DNA of 64,000 nt from a candidate division WOR-3 bacterium (GCA_026418295.1 JAOABP010000002.1:26244-90243), one strand, 5' to 3'. Positions 49,091-62,841 are shown, counted from the first letter of the stretch. The notes: a model not told the origin generated them from the letters alone. Numbers and translations: made by a program.

Positions 49091-49666
49091 ATGAGCAGGA
49101 AACTGATACCCGTAATAATATTGAGTGTCATTTTACTAACCGGCTGTGGAGGACCGAAGTCAACTACCTCCAGTCAGCAGAGTGTATCTGTGACTGAAGA
49201 TAGCCCGGTGCTTGTAATCACCAGTCCTTATTTTGCTGATAGAGAGACGATTCCCAGGAAGTTTACCGGCGATGGCGAGGATGTATCGCCCGAACTGCGC
49301 TGGGATAATGTGCCTTCCGGAACCAGAAGTTTTGCATTAATCTGTTCTGACCCGGATGCGCCGCTGGGCACATTCATTCACTGGGTGATTTATGACCTGC
49401 CCGCAGATGTCCGGCACCTGCCTGAGGGAATGCCGAAAACGGGTGTGCTGGATAATGGCGCCCGGCAGGGGGTTAACGGGTTCAGACAACTGGGGTATAA
49501 CGGACCCAAACCGCCACCCGGCAGGCCGCACCGGTATATTTTCCGGCTTTACGCACTGGATACCATTTTCGGTGCCGAACCGGGAATATCTGCCGGCAGA
49601 CTTGCCGGAATGATGGAGAATCATATTCTTGCAACTGCCGAATTGACAGGAATTTATGGAAAGTAG
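49091..49666 (+). CDS. YbhB/YbcL-family phosphatidylethanolamine-binding protein (PEBP), lipoprotein
   Basis: Signal peptide IILSVILLTGCGG. DPDAP…HW, GYNGPKPPPGRPHRY, FRLYALD PEBP motifs. Confidence 0.85.
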   Translation: MSRKLIPVIILSVILLTGCGGPKSTTSSQQSVSVTEDSPVLVITSPYFADRETIPRKFTGDGEDVSPELRWDNVPSGTRSFALICSDPDAPLGTFIHWVIYDLPADVRHLPEGMPKTGVLDNGARQGVNGFRQLGYNGPKPPPGRPHRYIFRLYALDTIFGAEPGISAGRLAGMMENHILATAELTGIYGK

Positions 49667-50189
49667 TTATAAAGAAAAATATCCCCAGCTTGCCGAGCTG
49701 GACCGGGATTTTTTGATTTCAATCCTTGAGGATGCGGCAAAGAACTGGCTGGCGCATGACGGGTTGTGGTTTCAGGGAGTGGAGCGCAGGTTCGGCATGG
49801 AAACTGCGATTGAGATTGATGCCGAGGCGTGGCGGCAGTTTACCGTGATTGAGGCAAGGCGGATTATGGAGCGGCACGGTATTGCGCCGGGAAGCGGAAT
49901 TTCCGGACTTGCGCGGGCTCTGGGTTTCCGGCTCTATGCCTTTATCAACCGGCAGGAGATCACCGAGCAGACCCAGAACCGGCTGGTGTTTACGATGAAG
50001 GAGTGCCGGGTGCAGGCGGCGCGCAAGCGCAAGGGGCTTGATGACTTTCCCTGCAAAACTGTGGGTCTGGTTGAATATGAGTGGTTTGCCAGAACGGTTG
50101 ATGAGCGGATACAGACCCGTTGTCTTTTCTGCCCGCCGGACCGGCATCCGGATGATGCCTGGTGTTCCTGGGAGTTTGTGATTAAATGA
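49656..50189 (+). CDS. hypothetical protein (possibly ATC-hydrolase/DUF-type cytosolic protein)
   Basis: WLAHDGLWFQGVERRFGMETAIEID region. Family assignment is recollection only. Confidence 0.4.
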   Translation: MESSYKEKYPQLAELDRDFLISILEDAAKNWLAHDGLWFQGVERRFGMETAIEIDAEAWRQFTVIEARRIMERHGIAPGSGISGLARALGFRLYAFINRQEITEQTQNRLVFTMKECRVQAARKRKGLDDFPCKTVGLVEYEWFARTVDERIQTRCLFCPPDRHPDDAWCSWEFVIK

Positions 50190-50909: not shown

Positions 50910-51134
50910 TCAGACCTCTTCAGGTGGGGGCCAGACCGCCATGCAGGCAGGGTTGGCGCAGCGCAGGGTTTCTGCCCGGCAGGCTTTGAGACAGCGGGGG
51001 CAGGAGGCGCTGCTGACTCTGCCATCCGGTTCCAGATATGCCTCTTCCTCCCAGTTGTAATTGCACTTTTCACAGAAGTAGCCGGCAAGGGTTTCTTTAC
51101 GGTTGCAGGAGGGACAGCGACAGCGATTGCTCAT
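50910..51134 (-). CDS. small Cys-rich zinc-ribbon protein (74 aa, 11 Cys)
   Basis: CPSCNRK…CEKCNYNW…CPRCLKAC…CANPAC pattern of four CxxC pairs. Confidence 0.45.
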   Translation of the reverse strand: MSNRCRCPSCNRKETLAGYFCEKCNYNWEEEAYLEPDGRVSSASCPRCLKACRAETLRCANPACMAVWPPPEEV

Positions 51135-51215: not shown

Positions 51216-52076
51216 GTGGTTGCGCTGATTACCGGGGTCAAGGGTTTGCTGGGTACTTATTTGTCTTTTTTTCTCAGGGCTGAAGGTGTCAGAGTTACCG
51301 GCTGGGATCTGCCGGAGCATGATATTACCCGGATTGAGGAGTGTATTAACGCCATCCACGAGGAAAATCCGGAGGTGATTTTCCATCTTGCCGCCTGGAC
51401 CGATGTTGACGGCTGTGAGGCGGAGCCGGCGCGGGCGCTGGCGGTAAATTTTCAGGGGACCTGGGCGGTGGCGCTCGGTGCGGCGGAAACTGGGTGTAAA
51501 CTTGTGTATTTGTCAACCGATTATGTTTTTGATGGCAGGAAGCGGAAACCCTACCGGGAGAGCGACAGGCCCAATCCGCTTTCGGTCTACGGCAGAAGCA
51601 AATACCTGGGTGAACAGGTGGTGATGAAGAACTGCCGGCGTTATTTTATTGTCCGGACGAGCCGGCTTTTCGGCCGACACGGCAGAAATTTTGTCAATAC
51701 GATTCTCAGCCGGGCAAAGGTGGATGGTGAGCTCCGGGTGGTCAATGATCAGACCGGTTCGCCGACTTATGCGAAAGATCTGTGTCTGCCACTGGTGCGG
51801 CTTGTTCGCTCCGAACATTACGGCATCTATCATCTGACCAATTCCGGTCAGTGTACCTGGTTTGAGTTTGCCCGGGAGATTGTCAGGCTTGCCGGCTTGA
51901 ACTGCAAGGTCATACCGATTACGACCGCCGAAAGCGGACGCCGGGCACCGAGGCCCGCATATTCGGTGCTGGACAATCATCATTACCGGCGCCGGTTCGG
52001 TTTGGAGTTGAGACCCTGGCAGGAGGCATTAAGGAGTTATCTTGATGAGATACAGGCAGCCGAAACTGGCGGTTGA
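51216..52076 (+). CDS. rfbD: dTDP-4-dehydrorhamnose reductase
   Basis: GTG start. LITGVKGLLG Rossmann motif; HLAAWTDVD; LVYLSTDYVFDG; RTSRLFG. All RmlD hallmarks. Confidence 0.85.
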   Translation: MVALITGVKGLLGTYLSFFLRAEGVRVTGWDLPEHDITRIEECINAIHEENPEVIFHLAAWTDVDGCEAEPARALAVNFQGTWAVALGAAETGCKLVYLSTDYVFDGRKRKPYRESDRPNPLSVYGRSKYLGEQVVMKNCRRYFIVRTSRLFGRHGRNFVNTILSRAKVDGELRVVNDQTGSPTYAKDLCLPLVRLVRSEHYGIYHLTNSGQCTWFEFAREIVRLAGLNCKVIPITTAESGRRAPRPAYSVLDNHHYRRRFGLELRPWQEALRSYLDEIQAAETGG

Positions 52077-52461
52077 CTGCATAATCCGGCTCCGGGACCG
52101 GGTGGTGCTGATTTACCGGCGGAATGAGCCGAAGGGCTGGGCACTGCCGGGCGGATTTGTGAACTACGGCGAGACGGTGGAGGAGGCGGTGGTGCGGGAG
52201 ATCCGGGAGGAAACCGGTCTGGAGCTGGATAATCTCCAGCAGTTTCATGTCTATTCGGATCCGAAGCGCGACCCACGGTGGCACTGTGTTTCGGTGGTTT
52301 TTACCGCCGAGGGCAGAGGAGAACCGCGTGCCGGGGATGATGCAGGCAGAATCATGCTGGTGGAGCTGGACCGACTGGATGAGGTTAATTTAGTTTTTGA
52401 TCACCGGCAGATTCTTGAGGACTACCGCGGGCAGTGCGGTGCTAATCCGGATAGGCGTTAA
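52045..52461 (+). CDS. NUDIX hydrolase
   Basis: Nudix box GWALPGGFVNYGETVEEAVVREIREETGL. Overlaps the rfbD 3' end by about 32 nt. Confidence 0.85.
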   Translation: MRYRQPKLAVDCIIRLRDRVVLIYRRNEPKGWALPGGFVNYGETVEEAVVREIREETGLELDNLQQFHVYSDPKRDPRWHCVSVVFTAEGRGEPRAGDDAGRIMLVELDRLDEVNLVFDHRQILEDYRGQCGANPDRR

Positions 52462-54256
52462 GCTGCTTTGCCCATTTGTTGAGCTGCTGGCGCCGGGTGT
52501 TATCATCTTCGGGCAAAACCAGCGGCCGGCCGCGGGCGTCAATTATCACTCCGGATAATCCGCCTTCCACTTCCGCTTCAACGGTCTTGCCCGAGCCGGC
52601 GCCGGCATCAAATCCCCGCTCCGGAGTGATCACCGCCTTTGCCTTTTCACCTACCGGGAGGGGCAGGCATTGAATGTCACCGAAGTTAACCTTTGCCTCA
52701 AATGTTTCTCCATTATTCTTGATTATCCTGACATGAACACAGGTTTTGCCTTCCTTGCCCTGGCCCGCCGGTGAGATGCTCGTGCCAAGGTGAATCAGAC
52801 AGTCCTTTTCAAAGACTTCCTGTGCTGCCTCCGGATGGACTTCAGTCAGCACCCCGAGATGAGGCATCATGAAGATGGAGTCTACGGTGAGCCGGGTGAC
52901 TCCTTCGGGTTGAAATGCGTCCAAAAGCATCATTGCCGCCTGTGCCCGGCGCGGGGCATGGGAGAGCGCACCGCCGGAACCGACGATCAGTGCCAGTTCC
53001 ATCATATTGACCAGTGTTTCTCCGGTGCGTGCCTGCGCAAAGGCGTCGGAGATGGTCCGCTCCTGCTGGACACCCTTGAGTCCGACTGCCATCGATTTGT
53101 GATGTTGAAGTGCAAGGCGCAGGGCTTCACGGGCAATTGCCTGCTCCAGCTTCAGGTCCTCCAAAGTTGAAGGTATAGTAGTAGGCCGGATCATCTTGTT
53201 GCGAATCCGGTTCCGGACTTCGCTTGTCGGGATGTCGAGCGGCAGCCAGCGGATGATGTTCTTTTCACCGGCTTCAGCCAGCACATTGGAGACGGAATAG
53301 GACATGCCGAGATTGGCGGAGACGGTGCGGTTGAAAATGCCCTGAAATACGCTGAATACATCGGTGGTGGCACCGCCGATGTCCACCCCCAGGACCGCAA
53401 TCCCCTGACTTTTGCCGATATTTTCAATCAGGAGTCCGACCGCACCGGGTGTGGGCATGATCGGGACATCGGTCCATTCCATCAGTTTCCGGTAGCCGGG
53501 TGCGTGTGCCATCACATGTTCCATGAACAGGTCATGGATCTTATGCCGTGCCGGTCCGAGATTTTCCCGCTCAAGCACGGGCCGGATGTTTTCAACAATT
53601 ACCAGACTGGTTTTATCCTTCAGTGTCTTCAGAACCAGTTCCCGGGCGTCCTTGTTGCCGGCATAGATGACCGGCAGGTTGTAGCCAATACCGAAACGGG
53701 GTTTGGGATCGGCCGCGGCGATCAGTTCAGCCAGTTCTACAACATGGGAAACGGTGCCGCCATCAACCCCGCCGGAGAGCAGAATCATGTCCGGCCGCAG
53801 GGTCCGGATCCGTTCGATCTTTTCGTGAGGAAGCCGGCCGTCGTTGGAGGCGATGACATCCATGACGATGGCGCCGGCACCCAGCGCTGCCCGGGCCGCA
53901 CTTTCTCCGGTCATCGTGAGTACGACCCCGGCAACCATCATCTGCAAGCCGCCACCGGCCGAGGAGGTGGAAATGTAGATGTCAGTTCCTTCTTTTTCAC
54001 TTGCCTTGGGTTTGTAGATGCCTTCGCCTTTGACCAGTTTAACCCCGGAAAGTTCTTCCACCTCCATCACCGAGTTAAGCACACCTTTGGTTACATCCTC
54101 AAACGGGGCTTCAACTGTCGTCGGTGCTTCACCCCGGACGATCAGCCGGTATTCACTGCCCCGTTTCTCAATCAGAATTGCCTTGGTGGTAGTGGAGCCA
54201 CAGTCGGTGGCAAGGATACGGGTAATCTTTTCTTTATCAAACTTTGGTTTGTCCAT
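52442..54256 (-). CDS. GlmL/MutL-family (glutamate-mutase-accessory-like, ASKHA-fold) protein, about 605 aa with C-terminal extension
   Basis: N-terminal ILATDCGSTTTKAIL and central VLGVDIGGATTDVFSV sugar-kinase/Hsp70-fold phosphate motifs, as in GlmL/MutL-like proteins. Convergent 20-nt overlap with the NUDIX gene. Confidence 0.55.
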   Translation of the reverse strand: MDKPKFDKEKITRILATDCGSTTTKAILIEKRGSEYRLIVRGEAPTTVEAPFEDVTKGVLNSVMEVEELSGVKLVKGEGIYKPKASEKEGTDIYISTSSAGGGLQMMVAGVVLTMTGESAARAALGAGAIVMDVIASNDGRLPHEKIERIRTLRPDMILLSGGVDGGTVSHVVELAELIAAADPKPRFGIGYNLPVIYAGNKDARELVLKTLKDKTSLVIVENIRPVLERENLGPARHKIHDLFMEHVMAHAPGYRKLMEWTDVPIMPTPGAVGLLIENIGKSQGIAVLGVDIGGATTDVFSVFQGIFNRTVSANLGMSYSVSNVLAEAGEKNIIRWLPLDIPTSEVRNRIRNKMIRPTTIPSTLEDLKLEQAIAREALRLALQHHKSMAVGLKGVQQERTISDAFAQARTGETLVNMMELALIVGSGGALSHAPRRAQAAMMLLDAFQPEGVTRLTVDSIFMMPHLGVLTEVHPEAAQEVFEKDCLIHLGTSISPAGQGKEGKTCVHVRIIKNNGETFEAKVNFGDIQCLPLPVGEKAKAVITPERGFDAGAGSGKTVEAEVEGGLSGVIIDARGRPLVLPEDDNTRRQQLNKWAKQLNAYPD

Positions 54257-54563
54257 TTTCACCCTCACTTTCGGTTTTAGGCCCTCGGCGCTCCTCTTCC
54301 AGCTGTTCAATCGTCTGAATCAGAATTTCAATGTTAGCGCGGTCCTCTAACAGGGCGGCAATCTCATCATACTGGTGGAAGGGAAAAAGCGCCATGATGA
54401 TTGGCTGGAAAAAAACCATCAGCTGGGAGCCGACAAAGGAGAGCGGTTTGGTTGATTCCAGCAGAACAATCGCTACCGGCGTAAGCCGGAGCTCGACCGT
54501 CTTGCGGGCGATTCGGGTCAGAATCTCGGTCTTGCGTTCGGGGGTAATATCAGAGGCAAACAT
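54237..54563 (-). CDS. hypothetical protein (108 aa)
   Basis: ORF tightly packed between gcvPB (1-nt gap) and the GlmL-like gene (20-nt overlap). No motif recognised. Confidence 0.4.
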   Translation of the reverse strand: MFASDITPERKTEILTRIARKTVELRLTPVAIVLLESTKPLSFVGSQLMVFFQPIIMALFPFHQYDEIAALLEDRANIEILIQTIEQLEEERRGPKTESEGENGQTKV

Positions 54564-56009
54564 CTATTCCTGATAGTTGACATCCAGCAATCTTGACGCC
54601 CGTGCTTCATCAAGCCGGCGCACCGGAGTAGAGTGGGGAGCATTATGGAGGATTTCCGGTTGCGTTCGGGCTTCCTCGGCGATCTGCTTCATTGCCTGGA
54701 CGAATTCATCGAGCGATTCCTTTGATTCAGTTTCAGTTGGTTCGATCATCAGCGCCTCCGGTACGATCAACGGAAAGTAGACAGTGGGTGCATGCAGGCC
54801 GAAGTCAAGCAGCCGTTTTGCCACATCCAGCGTCCGGACGCCGTGCTGTTTGAGGTTGTTGCCAGAAAAGACCACTTCATGCAGGGACCGCCGGGCGTAG
54901 GGAAGTTCGTAAATTCCTTCCAGTTCACGGCGGATGTAATTGGCGTTGAGCACCGCACATTCGGCGACCCGCTTCAAACCATCGGCACCGAGCATACGGA
55001 TGTAGGTGTAGGCGCGGACCAGAACCAAAAACTGGCCTAGGGAACCCAGAACTCTGCCGATGGAATCAGGACGGTCATATTCCAGCCTGTACCCATTTTC
55101 GCCTTTGACAATTACCGGGCGGGGCAGAAATGGCTCCAGGTGTTTTTTGACCGCAACCGGTCCGGCACCGGGTCCGCCACCACCGTGCGGTGTGGAGAAG
55201 GTCTTGTGAAGGTTGATGTGCATCAGATCAAAGCCCGCATCAGCCGGGCGATGAATTCCCAGGTAGGCATTGAGGTTGGCACCATCAAGGTAGACGAGTG
55301 CACCCTGCTCGTGCATGATTTCGCAGATCCGTTTGATCTCCGACTCAAACAGCCCGAGGGTGTTGGGATTGGTGACCATCAGGCAGGCAACGGAGTTGTT
55401 GCAGGTACGCATCAGCTCCTGCGGGTCAATCAGTCCCTGGTCAGTGGATTTGATCTGGACTGCCTGGAATCCGGAAAGCACTACTGAAGCGGGGTTAGTA
55501 CCGTGGGCCGAGTCGGGTACAAGCACGAGATTACGGTTCTCACCCTTCTTTTCAAAATACCTGCGCACCATCATGATGCCGGTAAGTTCACCGTGGGCAC
55601 CGGCAGCAGGCTGCAGGGTTACAGCATCAAATCCGGTAATCTCCTTCAGAAATTCTCCGAGTTCAAACATCAGCTGGAGTGCACCCTGGATCAGCGTTTC
55701 CGGTCCGTAGGGATGAAGGCTGGTAAAGCCGGGTAACCTGCAGGTCAGTTCATTGACCTTTGGATTGTATTTCATCGTGCAGGAGCCCAGCGGATAGAAA
55801 CCTTTATCTACATGGTGGTTCAGCGTGGAGAGCCGGGTGAAATGGCGGATGATGTCAATTTCCGACAATTCCGGGAGGCGATTATCAGCCCGGACCATAT
55901 TAGAACCGAAAACGGCAGCCGGGTCAACTGCAGGAACATCAAGTTCCGGCAGAGACCAGGCACGTCTGCCAGGGCAGGAAAGTTCAAAGAGTGATTTTTC
56001 CGGTTTCAT
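54564..56009 (-). CDS. gcvPB: glycine dehydrogenase (aminomethyl-transferring) subunit 2
   Basis: PLP-lysine region [22 protein letters not shown]. About 480 aa. Confidence 0.93.
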
Positions 56010-56203
56010 TTTTTCCTCATACTGGTGATCAGCCGGTCGATCGACCGGTCATAGGTTCTTTCTGCTTCCGGGGGAAAGAAGCAGCCGGGGATTTCTCCGT
56101 GCTGGCGGTGATAAGCCACACATTCACAGCAGCGTCCTTTCCGGGCGCACGGTTCATAGGTGCAGGTGCAGTTGTTGCGGTTTGCCTTCAGGTTACATTC
56201 CAT
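56006..56203 (-). CDS. Cys-rich micro-protein (65 aa) embedded between gcvPA and gcvPB
   Basis: [43 protein letters not shown]…; ATG start verified on minus strand (cat 56201-56203). Overlaps the gcvPA stop by 11 nt and the gcvPB start by 4 nt. The ORF-track 120-aa version is an upstream extension into gcvPA. Confidence 0.5.
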
Positions 56204-57548
56204 AGTTGCTCCTGAACTGTTTGATGAATGATAGATACTGATTAAGCTCCTGACGGGTGCGTCTTTCCGTGACCGCAACGAGCAGCCGGTTCTGCCACTG
56301 CGGGTTGAACTGTCCGAGATCAACGCCAGGCAGAATCCCCTGCTGGACCCCGGCGGCGATAATTTCACCTGCCGGGACTGGGGTTTCTACGACAAATTCC
56401 TTGAAGCAGGGGGCAGAGGTGGGCAGCTTAAAGCCCGGAATTTCTGCAATAGCAGTGGCAAGATATGTTGCCTTTGCCAGACACTGCCGGGCAACCTCTT
56501 TGATTCCTTCTTTGCCCATCCAGGCAAGATAAACGGTGGCAGCCAGTGCACACAGCGCCTGATTGGTGCAGATATTGGAGGTGGCACGTTCACGCCGGAT
56601 ATGCTGTTCCCGGGTCTGAAGCGCCAGCACATAGCCGGTCCTGCCTTCAACATCAACTGTACGGGCGGCAATCCTGCCAGGCATATGACGGATGTATTTC
56701 TTTTTGGCAGTCAGAATTCCGAGATAGGGTCCGCCCAGGGAAAGGGGAATGCCCAGTCCCTGACCTTCTGCAACCGCAATGTCGGCATCATAGGCGCCGG
56801 GTGGTTGAAGGATACCAAGAGATATGGGATCAACGGCAACGATAAGCAGTCCACCAGCTTCGTGAGTCAGCCGGCCAATTTCCTGAACTGGTTCCAGCGC
56901 ACCGAAGAAATTCGGATGCTGAATGATTACTGCCGCGGTATCGGTGTTGAGCAGTTTCTGCAGTCTATCGAGATCAGTGAGCAGGTTTTTGTCCGGAATG
57001 GCGACAATCGGGACATTCAAGCCATGGGCATAGGTGGCAATTACCTCACGATAGACCGGATTAACGGTCGCACTGACGAGCACCTGAGAGCGACCGGTAA
57101 TGTCCCGTGCCATGTGAACTGTCTCTGCCAAGGCGGAGGCGCAGTCATACATGGAGGCGTTGGCAACCTCCATTTCAAACAACCGGCAGACAAGGGACTG
57201 GAATTCATAGATTGACTGGAGTGTCCCCTGACTGACTTCAGCCTGATAAGGAGTATATGCGGTATAGAATTCCGACCGGGAGATGATCGTATCAATAAGT
57301 GCCGGCCGGTAGTGGTCATAGGCACCTGCCCCGGCAAAGCAGATCAGTTGGTCAGTGCCGGCGTTGAGGCGGGCGAGGCGACTGAGCTCGCTGATTACTT
57401 CGGGTTCGGAAAGAGGTCGGGGAAGGTTGAACCGGTGCCGGTATTTGAGTTCTTCCGGGATGGTATCAAAAAGTTCGTCAATGTTTTTTACGCCGATGCG
57501 GTCGAGCATCTGGCGAATATCTTCCGGAGTATGAGGCGCGTAATTCAA
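56193..57548 (-). CDS. gcvPA: glycine dehydrogenase (aminomethyl-transferring) subunit 1
   Basis: [34 protein letters not shown]. About 450 aa. Confidence 0.93.
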
Positions 57549-57952
57549 TGATGCTCCGATCTTTTTACCAGTTCGGCGTAGGCGGTATGGTCCAGCAGGC
57601 TGTTAATCTCTTCCGGGTGGGAGATTTTAATTCGGCAGAGCCAGCCCTGACCATAGGGGTCCCGGTTGACCATTGCCGGCGCCTCGCCTTCTGCCTTGTG
57701 GATTTGAGTATTTACTTCGATCACCTCTCCCGAGAGTGGGGCGTAGATATCCGATGTTGCCTTGACCGCCTCGATAAAACCGATCGGATCGTTCTGTTTG
57801 ACCGTTTTGCCAAGTGCGGTGATCTCCACATAGACAACATCGGAAAGTTCGTGCTGAGCGAAATCGGTGATTCCCACAGTGGCAATGTCGCCTTCAATTC
57901 TTGCCCACTCGTGGGTTTTTGTATATTTCAGATCCTCAGGAATTTGTGCCAT
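57545..57952 (-). CDS. gcvH: glycine cleavage system H protein
   Basis: YTKTHEWARIEGDIATVGITDFAQHELSDVVYVE…EAVKATSDIYAPLSGEV (lipoyl-Lys). Confidence 0.93.
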   Translation of the reverse strand: MAQIPEDLKYTKTHEWARIEGDIATVGITDFAQHELSDVVYVEITALGKTVKQNDPIGFIEAVKATSDIYAPLSGEVIEVNTQIHKAEGEAPAMVNRDPYGQGWLCRIKISHPEEINSLLDHTAYAELVKRSEHH

Positions 57953-57963
57953 TTATATCCTCC

Positions 57964-59061
57964 TTATTTCTTCCTTGAGCCGGACTTGTAAAATGGTGGG
58001 GGGACTACAACCGCTCTTGCACGGTGGTTGCGGATTTCTATCGTCAACTCGGTCCCGGATGATGAAAACCGGCGCTGGACATAGGCAAGGGCGATTCCCT
58101 TGTTCAGCGAAGGGGACATCGTGCCTGAGGTCGTGATGCCAATCTGATTGTCATCGGCAAAGACCGGCAGGCGGGGACGGGGAATTGCCTTTTCCAGCAT
58201 CTCCAGGCAGACGAGACGGCGTGCCGGTTTTTCCTGTGCTACCTGCTTTAATACTTCAGACCCAATAAATCCGCCCGGTTTATCCAGCTTAACGACGAAG
58301 CCGAGTCCGGCTTCGAGCGGGTTGGTGGTCTGGTCAATGTCATTGCCGTAGAGGCAGTATTTCATTTCCAGCCGCAGGGTGTCACGGGCACCAAGCCCGA
58401 TCGGTTCAATTTCAAACTCCCTGCCGGCTTCCATCAGCGCATCCCAGACCGCAAGAGCGCTTTGCGCGGGAATATAGAGTTCAAATCCATCTTCTCCGGT
58501 ATAGCCGGTCCTGGAGATGAGGCAGTCAATACCAGCAATTTTGCCCTCGGTTGCCCAGTAGAACCCTACAGGTGCAAGATCAATTGAGCAGATTTTCTGC
58601 AGGCAGGGCTCGGCTTTGGGGCCCTGAATCGCCAGCTGTGCTACTGCATCGGTAATGTTTTCAATCCGGACATCGCCGTTGCGGTGCTCAAGCAGCCATT
58701 GGGTATCCTTTTCATTATTGGCGCCGTTGACTACGAGTAGATAGTGATCTGGCAGGCGGTAAACTACCAGGTCATCGACAATTCCACCGTCAGGATAACA
58801 CATGACTGAATACTGTGCCTGATATACCGCCAATGTTGATGCATCGTTAGTGGTCATATGATTGATAAACCGGAGTGCATCGTTTCCCGAAATGCGGATT
58901 CTGCCCATATGAGAAACATCAAATACTCCTACTTTCGTGCGCACGTGGTGATGTTCGGGGATTATGCCCTTAAATTGAACTGGTAGATGATAGCCCGCAA
59001 ACTCGATGATTTTGCCGCCGGCACTCAGATGACGCGGATAGAATGGAGTCTGTTTTATCAT
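57964..59061 (-). CDS. gcvT: glycine cleavage system aminomethyltransferase T
   Basis: KQTPFYPRHLSAGGKIIEFAGYHLPVQF; 365 aa. Confidence 0.93.
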   Translation of the reverse strand: MIKQTPFYPRHLSAGGKIIEFAGYHLPVQFKGIIPEHHHVRTKVGVFDVSHMGRIRISGNDALRFINHMTTNDASTLAVYQAQYSVMCYPDGGIVDDLVVYRLPDHYLLVVNGANNEKDTQWLLEHRNGDVRIENITDAVAQLAIQGPKAEPCLQKICSIDLAPVGFYWATEGKIAGIDCLISRTGYTGEDGFELYIPAQSALAVWDALMEAGREFEIEPIGLGARDTLRLEMKYCLYGNDIDQTTNPLEAGLGFVVKLDKPGGFIGSEVLKQVAQEKPARRLVCLEMLEKAIPRPRLPVFADDNQIGITTSGTMSPSLNKGIALAYVQRRFSSSGTELTIEIRNHRARAVVVPPPFYKSGSRKK

Positions 59062-60508: not shown

Positions 60509-60576
60509 TAACATCAATCTAAATTACGATGGCTCGGTCAAAGTCACCAAGTTTTATAACCAAAAAGGAGTTCAAG

Positions 60577-62841
60577 GTGAGAAATGTCCGTTATTTGATC
60601 ATTACTGTCGTACTGCTTTCGGCGTTAATTTTTTTCGCCCCGGCAGTACAGGCACGGCAGATGATTGTCCGGGTTGATGTGCCGGACTATCCCACGCTTT
60701 ATCAGCATATTCCCTTTAAGGGAAGTTCAATTGAAATTGCCGGTGCACAGCCCGGCAAGTCTTATGACCTGCTGGTGGACGAAAGTGATCTGCCGCTGGT
60801 GCTCAATTCCGGACTTAAGGCTGAGATTGTAGTGCCGGACTTGGAGGCACAGAAGCAGGAAGCGGCGGCGTTTGGATTTTACTGTTCTTACGATTCGCTC
60901 TTATCGATTATGCGCAACTGGGCAGCAAGCTATCCTTCAATCTGTCGGCTGGAGTCAATCGGTCAGACCTATCAGGGACGCTGGATTTACGGAGTCAAAA
61001 TTTCGGATAATGTGAATCTGGATGAGGAGGAGCCCGAGGTGCTGCTGGAGGCGATGCATCATTCCCGGGAATGGGCGACACCTCAGGCGGCAAGGTATTT
61101 TGCCGATACGATACTGCGCAACTACACAACCAACCCAGCTTTTCAGAATTTTGTTGACAATCACGAACTCTGGGTTTTCCCGATTATAAATGTTGACGGT
61201 TATGTCTATGACTATCCCAGTCAGCGCAGCTGGCGCAAGAACCGTCAGCCCTACGGTTCGGCTATCGGTTGCGACCCGAATCGCGATTATAATGGTGCCT
61301 GCAACGGTTCCAGAATGGCAGACTGGGGGGCGCTCGTTCCGGGGTCACGATCTTCTCACCTACCTTCGGATGAAACATTCATGGGCGGATATGGTGCCTG
61401 GGGTTATGAGGTGAATGCCTTGTGTAACTTCTTTAAACAGCGGACATTCTTGGCAGATATTTCTCTGCATTCATATTCTGAACTGGTGCTCTGGCCCTAT
61501 GGAAATGGCGAGACACCACCTGACAACAATACATTTGTCAGTCTTGGTCAGAGGATGGCACAGCAGATGCAGAAGCTCTCCGGAGGAACTTATACCCCCG
61601 AGCCTTCAAGTGAGCTTTACCCGACTGCCGGCGGCTCAATCGATTGGATGTATGGCTGGGCACGGCATATCGGTGGCTTTCCCTGTCTTTCCTATGTTTT
61701 TGAGATTGGTACGACTTTTTATCAGAATGTAAGTCAGCTGGATGCAATTCAGCGCGAAGTGTTCAAGGGCATCTGGTATCTCTTTAACCGTGCGGATTCA
61801 ATTGGTGAGGTGCTGGAAGGTGTGGTACCTAGGCCGATTCTGGCAGTGATGGATTCAAGTCTTACCGGCACATTTACTGTGCACTGGTCTCCGATCCGGC
61901 CTGAGCATAATCATCCGGAGAAGTGGGAGCTGGAGGAGCTGAGCGGTTTGAGTGTGGTAACCGAGGATTTTGAGTCCGGTTCTGCCCGCTGGGTTCTGCA
62001 AGGTGCTTCACTGTCATCCACACAGAAGCATGCCGGTAGTTACAGTGTGTCACTCGGGACGGGAAACAACATTTCCAACTATGCGATGACCGCTGATCCT
62101 TATCCGGTTCAACCCGGTGACAGTCTGATTTACTGGATCTGGTATAATACCGAAGCAAACTATGATGTTGTGGTGACCGAAGTGTCGCTGGAAGGCAAGG
62201 AGTGGATTCAGCTGCATAACCGTTACGACGGCAATTCCGGGGGGTGGCTACGTAAGGCTTATTCACTTGATCCATGGGCAGGAAAATCGGTCTACATCCG
62301 ATTTCGGTATATGACGGATGATAATACATTGGGCAGCGGGGTGTATGTTGATGATGTTTATCCGGTGCCGTCATTTGCCAGTCGCCGGCTGGTTGCCAGT
62401 AATATTACCGACACGATGTATGAGGTTACGGTTGCTGAACCCGGTCAATACTGGTATCGGGTACGGGGTTATAATTCCACTTGGGGCTGGGGTGATTATG
62501 GACCGCTGGAGGATATCATTGTTACCGGAAGCGGAGTTGCCGAGCAGCCAAAGGTAAAGCGATATCGGACCGATCTGAGTCTCCTCGGTCCCAATCCTGC
62601 TTCCGGTGCCGGCATCCGGATTCAATACTCACTTGCTCACAGCGGTAATGCTGAGCTGGCAGTTTTCGATGCTACGGGCAGGGCGGTGCGCAGGCTGATA
62701 TCGGGCGTGGTGCCCGCAGGGGAGTATCAGATTAACTGGGATGGAGCTGATAGTCAGGGGAAGAGACTACCAGCCGGCGTCTATTTCTGCCGTCTGATTG
62801 CTGACGAGACAAGAACCGGACGGATTGTTCTCAACCGCTGA
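60577..62841 (+). CDS. secreted M14 zinc carboxypeptidase with T9SS C-terminal sorting domain
   Basis: GTG start after AAGGAG. Signal peptide YLIITVVLLSALIFFAPAVQA. M14 zinc-binding HSREWAT and downstream His. C-terminal AELAVFDATGRAVRRLISG…YQINWDGADSQGKRLPAGVYFCRL…GRIVLNR T9SS CTD. Confidence 0.82.
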   Translation: MRNVRYLIITVVLLSALIFFAPAVQARQMIVRVDVPDYPTLYQHIPFKGSSIEIAGAQPGKSYDLLVDESDLPLVLNSGLKAEIVVPDLEAQKQEAAAFGFYCSYDSLLSIMRNWAASYPSICRLESIGQTYQGRWIYGVKISDNVNLDEEEPEVLLEAMHHSREWATPQAARYFADTILRNYTTNPAFQNFVDNHELWVFPIINVDGYVYDYPSQRSWRKNRQPYGSAIGCDPNRDYNGACNGSRMADWGALVPGSRSSHLPSDETFMGGYGAWGYEVNALCNFFKQRTFLADISLHSYSELVLWPYGNGETPPDNNTFVSLGQRMAQQMQKLSGGTYTPEPSSELYPTAGGSIDWMYGWARHIGGFPCLSYVFEIGTTFYQNVSQLDAIQREVFKGIWYLFNRADSIGEVLEGVVPRPILAVMDSSLTGTFTVHWSPIRPEHNHPEKWELEELSGLSVVTEDFESGSARWVLQGASLSSTQKHAGSYSVSLGTGNNISNYAMTADPYPVQPGDSLIYWIWYNTEANYDVVVTEVSLEGKEWIQLHNRYDGNSGGWLRKAYSLDPWAGKSVYIRFRYMTDDNTLGSGVYVDDVYPVPSFASRRLVASNITDTMYEVTVAEPGQYWYRVRGYNSTWGWGDYGPLEDIIVTGSGVAEQPKVKRYRTDLSLLGPNPASGAGIRIQYSLAHSGNAELAVFDATGRAVRRLISGVVPAGEYQINWDGADSQGKRLPAGVYFCRLIADETRTGRIVLNR

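Follow-up and report, generated by a model that had tools for sequence, protein, structure and literature searches.

The window analysed here is a 64,000-nucleotide stretch from the genome of a candidate division WOR-3 bacterium (GCA_026418295.1, JAOABP010000002.1:26244-90243), and between positions 52442 and 59061 it carries seven tightly packed genes on the minus strand: gcvT, gcvH, gcvPA, a cysteine-rich open reading frame (ORF) of 65 amino acids, gcvPB, a gene for a 108-residue protein that we call p108, and a gene for an ATPase of the MutL family with the ASKHA fold. The first gene, gcvT (57964-59061), encodes an aminomethyltransferase of 365 amino acids (Pfam GCV_T, E 1e-94, together with GCV_T_C; NCBIfam 445 bits against a cut-off of 300) and is followed after a gap of 11 nt by gcvH (57545-57952), encoding the lipoyl carrier H-protein of 135 amino acids (Pfam GCV_H, E 4e-41; NCBIfam 163 bits against 117). 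gcvPA (56193-57548) starts at a TTG codon, overlaps gcvH by 4 nt and encodes the 451-residue alpha subunit of glycine decarboxylase (NCBIfam equivalog, 621 bits against 364, with positions 2-444 of the GcvPA model aligned to residues 1-444), while gcvPB (54564-56009) encodes the 481-residue beta subunit, which carries pyridoxal phosphate (PLP; NCBIfam GcvPB equivalog, 717 bits against 441). All four glycine-cleavage proteins thus score above curated NCBIfam cut-offs, and both their gene order and their family scores are ordinary. The octapeptide HINLHKTF, the PLP-lysine motif of GcvP sequences, is present in the window GcvPB and in all 34 gcvPB ORFs of the related loci described below.

The three further ORFs are packed just as closely. 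The 65-residue ORF (56006-56203), which encodes a DUF6485 protein (PF20095, E 3.6e-9, 37.4 bits against a gathering threshold of 24), shares 11 nt with the end of gcvPA and 4 nt (ATGA) with the start of gcvPB, and AGGAG lies 5 nt 5' of its ATG. The ATG of p108 (54237-54563) follows immediately on the gcvPB stop codon, and the MutL-like gene (52442-54256; Pfam PF13941, E 4e-127) overlaps p108 by 20 nt. A mechanical call extends the latter to a 622-residue ORF from a TTG at 54310; the 604-residue version is most likely the actual gene, because the homologues are all about 600 residues long and the ATG at 54256 has a GAGGGTG ribosome-binding site in front of it. Across the seven genes the junctions range from -20 to +11 nt, each of the extra ORFs is preceded by a Shine-Dalgarno-like sequence, gcvT has a sigma-70-like site a short distance upstream on the minus strand (59098-59070), and no convincing internal terminator was found in the operon. 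From these features of the sequence we infer that the seven genes form one operon and would be co-transcribed. Its far boundary is marked by a convergent NUDIX hydrolase gene (52042-52461, plus strand; Pfam NUDIX, E 4e-22), which is not a member and whose 3' end overlaps the 3' end of the MutL-like gene by 20 nt; a NUDIX gene occupies the same place in the related WOR-3 loci L001, L002, L006, L008 and L020. An Rfam scan of the window returned no glycine riboswitch or other RNA control of the operon, its sole match being a tmRNA. The genes lpd, lplA and lipA are not among the operon genes, and no search aimed at them was made.

The initial annotation of this stretch had described a contiguous minus-strand gcv set, a 65-residue ORF with overlaps of 11 and 4 nt, a 108-residue ORF and a protein of about 605 residues with two ASKHA phosphate motifs, and all of these are present, the last with a likely length of 604 residues. 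Homologue numbers, which run from hundreds to thousands per ORF, put the ORFs far beyond chance, and the whole seven-gene arrangement recurs in other WOR-3 genomes; public records from metagenome-assembled genomes (MAGs) of candidate division WOR-3 contain both the micro-protein (as 'DUF6485 family protein', 100% identical) and the MutL-like protein (99% identical). Standard split-P operons, as in Thermus- or Thermotoga-type genomes, run gcvT-gcvH-gcvPA-gcvPB, and the window shares with them the four genes, their order and the ordinary family scores. It differs from them in having the DUF6485 gene wedged between gcvPA and gcvPB and two genes appended, and in that, among the relatives of the window, gcvPB parts company with gcvT, gcvH and gcvPA but not with the appended pair.

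The MutL-like protein belongs to Pfam MutL (425 bits against 27), residues 32-504 of the 622-residue ORF covering model positions 1-450 of 450. It consists of an ASKHA core (residues 1-495) and a beta-rich C-terminal domain of about 110 residues, and the core carries a phosphate-1 motif ATDCGSTTTK (residues 16-25), a phosphate-2 motif DIGGATTD (292-299) and an adenosine motif GSGG (426-429), all three of them invariant in 44 homologues. Mean column identity in the core is approximately 0.74-0.90 per 50-residue block, the C-terminal domain being less conserved, and the protein is the best conserved of the operon, with 76% identity in locus L012 as compared to 53-63% for the other six proteins, and 69% in L027 as compared to 37-57%. 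The AlphaFold2 model is mediocre (pLDDT 68.5, pTM 0.69), with values above 90 in the C-terminal domain, and its Foldseek matches, at TM-scores of about 0.2, comprise Hsp70s, N-methylhydantoinase, acetone carboxylase, acetophenone carboxylase and FtsA. The fold is therefore ASKHA, and the fold search cannot separate the reactivase, Hsp70, FtsA/PilM and hydantoinase types. No relative of the MutL-like protein with a solved structure was found by sequence.

To place the protein in its genomic contexts, an alignment of MutL-like sequences was scanned against one genome per GTDB species, yielding 586 confirmed matches, of which the best 80 loci were kept. They derive from WOR-3, Latescibacterota, Stahlbacteria, Edwardsbacteria, TA06, Eisenbacteria, Cloacimonadota, Zixibacteria, Poribacteria, Ignavibacteria, Gemmatimonadetes, Brocadia and bins labelled as delta-proteobacterial; for the high-GC loci (Eisenbacteria) the statistics rest on tblastn. 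In all 80 loci the MutL-like protein is 65-90% identical to that of the window, and a p108 homologue lies directly upstream of it on the same strand in 58 of the 78 loci with enough sequence. p108 itself has 311 close homologues, and a profile search of 1.84 billion cluster representatives (50% identity) recovered 1703 members at E≤1e-3, nearly all of them stand-alone proteins of 90-190 residues. They share a core motif PAI-FLES-KPLSF-GSQ-MVFF-P, followed by an acidic C-terminal helix, and a helical or hydrophobic character is predicted for p108, which matched none of the Pfam, NCBIfam or PADLOC models. p108 and the MutL-like protein are thus a conserved and widespread two-protein unit. We found no relevant literature on this pair, on its attachment to gcvPB or on the membrane-protein neighbourhood described below. 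Mimicry of a glycine-cleavage subunit by p108 or DUF6485 was considered and rejected, profile-profile comparison of the two with GcvT, GcvH, GcvPA, GcvPB and MutL giving probabilities of at most 3.2%.

Of the 66 loci with at least 3 kb of upstream sequence, 31 have gcvPB 5' of the MutL-like gene. The linkage holds in WOR-3 (12/14), Eisenbacteria (5/5), TA06 (1/1), Latescibacterota (1/3) and several bins that are unclassified or otherwise labelled, and it is also seen in shorter loci from Stahlbacteria and Cloacimonadota. gcvPB mostly lies directly upstream of p108, and in loci of the Eisenbacteria type a gene for a membrane-anchored protein (c8, described below) intervenes. Among the 29 gcvPB-linked loci with room to judge, 16 have the full gcvT-gcvH-gcvPA-gcvPB set and 13 have a lone gcvPB, with no gcvT, gcvH or gcvPA within 8 kb or more and unrelated housekeeping genes upstream; these 13 keep p108-MutL, DUF6485 being optional. 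The lone genes retain the hallmarks of the beta subunit, since the four lone GcvPB proteins that were scanned score 679-727 bits against the equivalog cut-off of 441 and all lone gcvPB ORFs keep the PLP-lysine motif. In a MutL tree the full-operon and lone-gcvPB loci are interleaved, gcvPB-p108-MutL remaining constant throughout, and the linkage falls into three separate clades. The 13 lone-gcvPB loci therefore identify gcvPB-p108-MutL as the conserved unit, rather than a glycine-cleavage system with an add-on, and, remarkably, gcvPB is separated from its obligate partner gcvPA more readily than from the p108-MutL pair. The idea, raised in the initial annotation, of an ASKHA add-on to the glycine-cleavage system is accordingly borne out in that linkage of p108 and the ASKHA protein to gcvPB recurs across several candidate phyla, but the partner is gcvPB specifically and not the system as a whole; nothing points to lipoylation or to redox coupling, the two roles suggested for it at the time.

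Public databases (NCBI, UniRef) name the MutL-like protein 'glutamate mutase L' or 'methylaspartate mutase'. GlmL/MutL has been described as a reactivating chaperone for glutamate mutase (PMC4682846). Together with Or-4 of the ornithine degradation cluster, the GlmL/MutL proteins of clostridial glutamate mutase operons share with the window protein the Pfam family, the ASKHA fold and the ATP-binding motifs, as well as a position beside a cofactor-dependent enzyme that converts an amino acid and the presumed function of an ATP-dependent accessory or reactivating chaperone. The window protein differs from them in being approximately 145 residues longer, in carrying the beta-rich C-terminal domain, in having an obligatory small partner, p108, and in having as its neighbour the PLP-dependent GcvPB and/or a module of membrane proteins, not a B12 mutase. 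It also fails the NCBIfam cut-offs for GlmL (NF040745, 227 against 475), Or-4 (NF040744, 216 against 600) and TIGR01319 (163 against 204), so that the term 'GlmL/MutL-like' used in the initial annotation holds at the level of the Pfam family only. No B12 mutase subunit was found in the window, where all genes across 49-64 kb were identified, nor among the annotated recurrent neighbour clusters of the 80 loci (p108, gcvP, gcvT, gcvH, c3, DUF6754, c6, c7, c8, c10, sugar isomerases and GFO oxidoreductases), several clusters of 5-11 loci having been left unannotated. Because the GlmL cut-offs are failed and no mutase neighbours the gene, the database names are misleading, and classical GlmL function was rejected on NCBIfam scores and gene context.

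In many phyla the pair is part of a longer conserved string, c8 - p108 - MutL - c3 - DUF6754 - c6 - c7 - c10, which is seen in Zixibacteria, Latescibacterota, Ignavibacteria, bins labelled as delta-proteobacterial and some WOR-3 (for example L023, 11800-19696; L037, 8912-19625; L054, 7568-21655; L066, 8947-17571; L074, 9580-17448); in Brocadia it is represented by p108-MutL-c3 only. The first protein, c8, is a membrane-anchored protein of approximately 150-200 residues with two transmembrane helices and a PH-like part, c3 has 375 residues, DUF6754 (PF20539, E 1e-117), c6 and c10 are membrane proteins, the last two polytopic, and c7 has transmembrane helices at both ends. Apart from DUF6754, the string proteins c8, c3, c6, c7 and c10 have no family model. 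c3 follows MutL in 32 loci, DUF6754, c6, c7 and c10 occur in 15-18 loci each, and in L023, L037, L041 and L054 the DUF6754-c6-c7-c10 set is tandemly repeated two or three times behind a single MutL-c3. Natural fusions of c8 with p108 exist (P0413, 261 residues; P0424, 288 residues), which suggests that c8 cooperates with p108 and that the membrane is a possible site of p108 action in those organisms. The whole series from gcv to c10 stands in one string in L026, L047, L074 and L023, and L033 shows the same as far as its contig reaches. In contrast, none of c3, c4, c6, c7, c8 and c10 was found in the 64-kb window or beside MutL in its closest WOR-3 relatives. The initial annotation had counted an unrelated conserved neighbourhood of the ASKHA protein among the findings that would speak against its reading; in other phyla the protein does have a neighbourhood of its own (c8, p108, c3, DUF6754 and three more membrane proteins), and the linkage to gcvPB recurs as well. 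An anti-phage defence system was rejected, there being no PADLOC match for the MutL-like protein, p108, DUF6485, c3, DUF6754, c6, c7 or c10. In a further fusion protein, P0437, p108 is joined to an S-adenosylmethionine-dependent methyltransferase domain.

Poribacteria represent a third, different context for the same highly conserved MutL-like protein. There it mostly occurs without p108, which was found in a single Poribacteria locus (L080), and in L036, L044, L050, L053 and L058-L063 it lies beside genes for xylose-isomerase-like TIM-barrel proteins and GFO/IDH/MocA oxidoreductases.

We propose, at a probability of roughly 0.38, that p108 and the MutL-like protein constitute a two-component, ATP-driven chaperone or reactivase whose client is GcvPB, with DUF6485 as a co-produced metal-binding mini-protein. 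The Hsp70/DdrA-like ASKHA subunit would hydrolyse ATP, the small subunit p108 would serve as adaptor or plug, and through physical interaction the pair would act on the PLP-carrying beta subunit of glycine decarboxylase, either in its assembly with the alpha subunit or in the exchange of spoiled cofactor, such as PLP that has been turned to pyridoxamine phosphate by abortive transamination. Such a task would parallel the presumed role of GlmL, DdrAB and EutA for B12 enzymes, on which DdrAB and EutA act as reactivases. DdrA-DdrB, one of the diol/glycerol dehydratase reactivases together with PduG-PduH and GdrA-GdrB, likewise combines a large Hsp70-like subunit with a small one, DdrB having approximately 115 residues, and offers a suggestive parallel to the MutL-like protein and p108. 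The parallel is one of resemblance and not of membership: beyond MutL and two weak hydantoinase matches the MutL-like protein has no Pfam match at E≤0.01, and p108 has none at all, so that neither is linked by sequence to the diol/glycerol dehydratase reactivase families. The window also differs from these systems in its gene order, with the small subunit preceding the large one, and in that the proposed client is a PLP enzyme and not a B12 enzyme.

Several observations weigh against a chaperone or reactivase dedicated to GcvPB. About half of the loci have MutL without a nearby gcvPB, and no upstream gcvPB was seen in Poribacteria (0/12), Zixibacteria (0/5), Brocadia, two bins labelled as proteobacterial, Gemmatimonadetes and Ignavibacteria. 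Within related candidate phyla, common descent of the gene order, and not selection, could explain the linkage. The conserved membrane neighbourhood found elsewhere weakens a purely glycine-cleavage-centred reading, as the membrane set points to a membrane-associated role that the P-protein does not obviously need. p108 resembles no glycine-cleavage subunit and hence gives no sign of subunit mimicry of the DdrB kind, and we know of no ATP-dependent reactivase of a purely PLP-dependent enzyme. The wider proposition that the pair is either a dedicated glycine decarboxylase chaperone or reactivase, which to our knowledge would be the first for a purely PLP-dependent enzyme, or more broadly the ATPase hub of an unrecognised, widespread membrane machine coupled to glycine decarboxylation, appears to us unlikely.

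The main rival holds that c8, p108, MutL, c3, DUF6754, c6, c7 and c10 make up a separate membrane-associated machine unrelated to glycine cleavage, that the adjacency of gcvPB is inherited gene order, and that in this WOR-3 lineage the membrane genes were moved elsewhere or lost, co-transcription with gcv being incidental. The frequency with which c3 and the DUF6754, c6, c7 and c10 genes follow MutL, their tandem duplications, the c8-p108 fusions and the many clades that carry the module without gcvPB all agree with such a machine, as does the very strong conservation of MutL, which a hub with many partners might show. The membrane genes are nevertheless missing from the window and from beside MutL in its closest relatives, and yet p108-MutL is welded to gcvPB there; neutral retention alone hardly explains why 13 loci keep gcvPB with p108-MutL after its separation from gcvPA, and the linkage occurs in three separate clades of the MutL tree. 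We consider a separate machine somewhat less probable than the chaperone or reactivase.

Glycine decarboxylase and the membrane module might instead serve a joint function with MutL and p108 as the coupling ATPase, for example in the handling of substrate or product at the membrane or as a shared energiser for several paralogous membrane sets. This would account for the loci that carry the full string, and the tandem membrane sets behind a single MutL-c3 do resemble transport systems with a shared energiser. A weak alignment of c3 (residues 49-144) with GcvH (19-111) could be read in the same sense, but it spans 87 columns at an hhalign probability of 9.8% and is not significant, and the lysine for lipoyl attachment is not conserved in c3. 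Since the proposal rests on context, no known mechanism joins P-protein chemistry to a membrane complex, and the membrane genes are absent from the window, we regard a joint function as improbable. The c3-GcvH alignment is in itself compatible with a shared barrel-sandwich-hybrid fold; a search by sequence for relatives of c3 with solved structures returned noise only.

It is less probable still that the MutL-like protein is not a chaperone but an ATP-dependent activating enzyme of the hydantoinase/acetone-carboxylase type, one that would, for example, activate bicarbonate/CO2 or a small substrate and so push the P-protein towards glycine synthesis in an anaerobe. Its linkage to the CO2-handling subunit of the glycine-cleavage system, the weak Pfam matches to Hydantoinase_A (E 0.003) and Hydant_A_N (E 0.008) and the presence of N-methylhydantoinase and the two carboxylases among the best Foldseek matches are in keeping with this; however, the Pfam matches lie below their cut-offs, the Foldseek TM-scores are low, no HyuB-like or other partner subunit is present, and the conserved membrane neighbourhood would be left unexplained. 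That the public annotation is right, and the protein is GlmL, which assists or reactivates B12-dependent glutamate (methylaspartate) mutase, or a relative from the ornithine pathway, is very improbable given the failed cut-offs, the additional C-terminal domain and the want of a mutase subunit noted above, its membership of PF13941 and its database names notwithstanding.

If the link to gcvPB is functional, the chaperone or reactivase proposed here would be an unsuspected maintenance or assembly factor for a central one-carbon enzyme, and the reactivase concept would extend beyond B12 enzymes; if it is not, the pair remains the marker of a conserved membrane-associated system that has not been described before and merits investigation. 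The glycine-cleavage genes, the DUF6485 family and the MutL Pfam family were known before, whereas the pair, its exceptional conservation, its attachment to gcvPB and its membrane neighbourhood appear in no paper that we found, and p108 represents a family of at least 1700 clusters at 50% identity that lacks a Pfam or NCBIfam model. Thousands of metagenomic proteins bear the labels 'glutamate mutase L' or 'methylaspartate mutase'. The labelled proteins form a subfamily apart, which is exceptionally conserved and has a small partner of its own, p108, and the labels would lead one to expect, wrongly, that WOR-3, Eisenbacteria, Zixibacteria, Poribacteria and other uncultured phyla ferment glutamate, so that pathway reconstructions could be misled.

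The embedded micro-protein belongs to a different story. A database search with DUF6485 returned 250 homologues from WOR-3, Elusimicrobiota, Atribacterota, Omnitrophota, Desulfobacterota, Clostridia and at least one archaeon, and in 26 diverse members the residues C12, C14, C19, C25, C26, C28, H32 and C41 do not vary, nor does a YDRS motif in the C-terminal helix, and C3 is nearly invariant. The window protein shares both the Cys/His pattern and the YDRS helix. Because of the eight invariant Cys/His ligands, DUF6485 is a putative small Cys8/His metal-binding protein, the metal being presumably Zn or an Fe-S cluster. The micro-ORF is thus real, conserved and rich in metal ligands, as the initial annotation had supposed. 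Its AlphaFold2 model is weak (pLDDT 67.7, pTM 0.40) and a fold search with this weak model gave no match; no relative with a solved structure was found by sequence, and our literature search found no paper on the function or structure of the family.

Among the 80 loci retrieved via the MutL-like protein, DUF6485 is present in 11, always immediately 5' of gcvPB and irrespective of whether gcvPA is present, and in the MutL tree the 11 loci group as one subclade, in keeping with a single insertion. When loci were instead retrieved via DUF6485 itself, gcv genes were found nearby in none of 80 metagenome loci and in none of six non-WOR-3 genome loci (Caldatribacterium, Caldicellulosiruptor and MAGs labelled Elusimicrobiota, Myxococcota and Pseudomonadota), and on these counts DUF6485 was rejected as a general partner of gcvP. 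The same-strand neighbours in these loci comprise 64 proteins of 53 Pfam families, and the sole recurrent ones are a pair of paralogous DHDPS-Fae fusion proteins on either side. The varied contexts without gcv argue for a small protein in broad use that one lineage acquired 5' of gcvPB; elsewhere its members sit in many unrelated operons. DUF6485 is therefore probably not a dedicated glycine-cleavage factor, and the earlier view of the micro-protein as an add-on to glycine cleavage does not hold, its gcv link being confined to one WOR-3-like subclade. A single insertion would have placed it immediately 5' of gcvPB in the WOR-3 lineage, where translational coupling may ensure that it is made together with GcvPB, and its role is probably broader than glycine cleavage. 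The negative is instructive: a micro-ORF that is embedded in an operon and translationally coupled does not necessarily encode a dedicated subunit of the enzyme whose genes it interrupts.

The DHDPS-Fae arrangement was seen in at least six metagenome loci (L096, 2923-6054; also L104, L105, L108, L128, L145 and L155), where DUF6485 lies between two paralogues of approximately 485 residues, each combining a DHDPS (DapA-like) domain with Fae, the formaldehyde-activating-enzyme domain. The flanking echoes the position of DUF6485 between the paralogous gcvPA and gcvPB, again in the setting of one-carbon chemistry. NUDIX or MazG genes lie beside or near DUF6485 in unrelated lineages (L166, 847-1401; L086, L088, L089, L092, L102 and L168), which may be coincidence.

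Elsewhere in the window, a 74-residue ORF (50910-51134, minus strand) with several CxxC pairs fills most of the gap between RadC and RmlD on the opposite strand; it resembles a zinc-ribbon mini-protein and has no Pfam match. The tmRNA gene lies at 1380-1735 on the plus strand (Rfam RF00023, 181 bits). A DUF6125 protein (E 3e-80) is encoded at 49656-50189 on the plus strand, adjoining a PEBP-family protein, and a 770-residue M14 carboxypeptidase at 60529-62841, also on the plus strand, has MAM-like and FlgD-Ig C-terminal domains, the FlgD-Ig type being known from secreted proteins of the FCB group.

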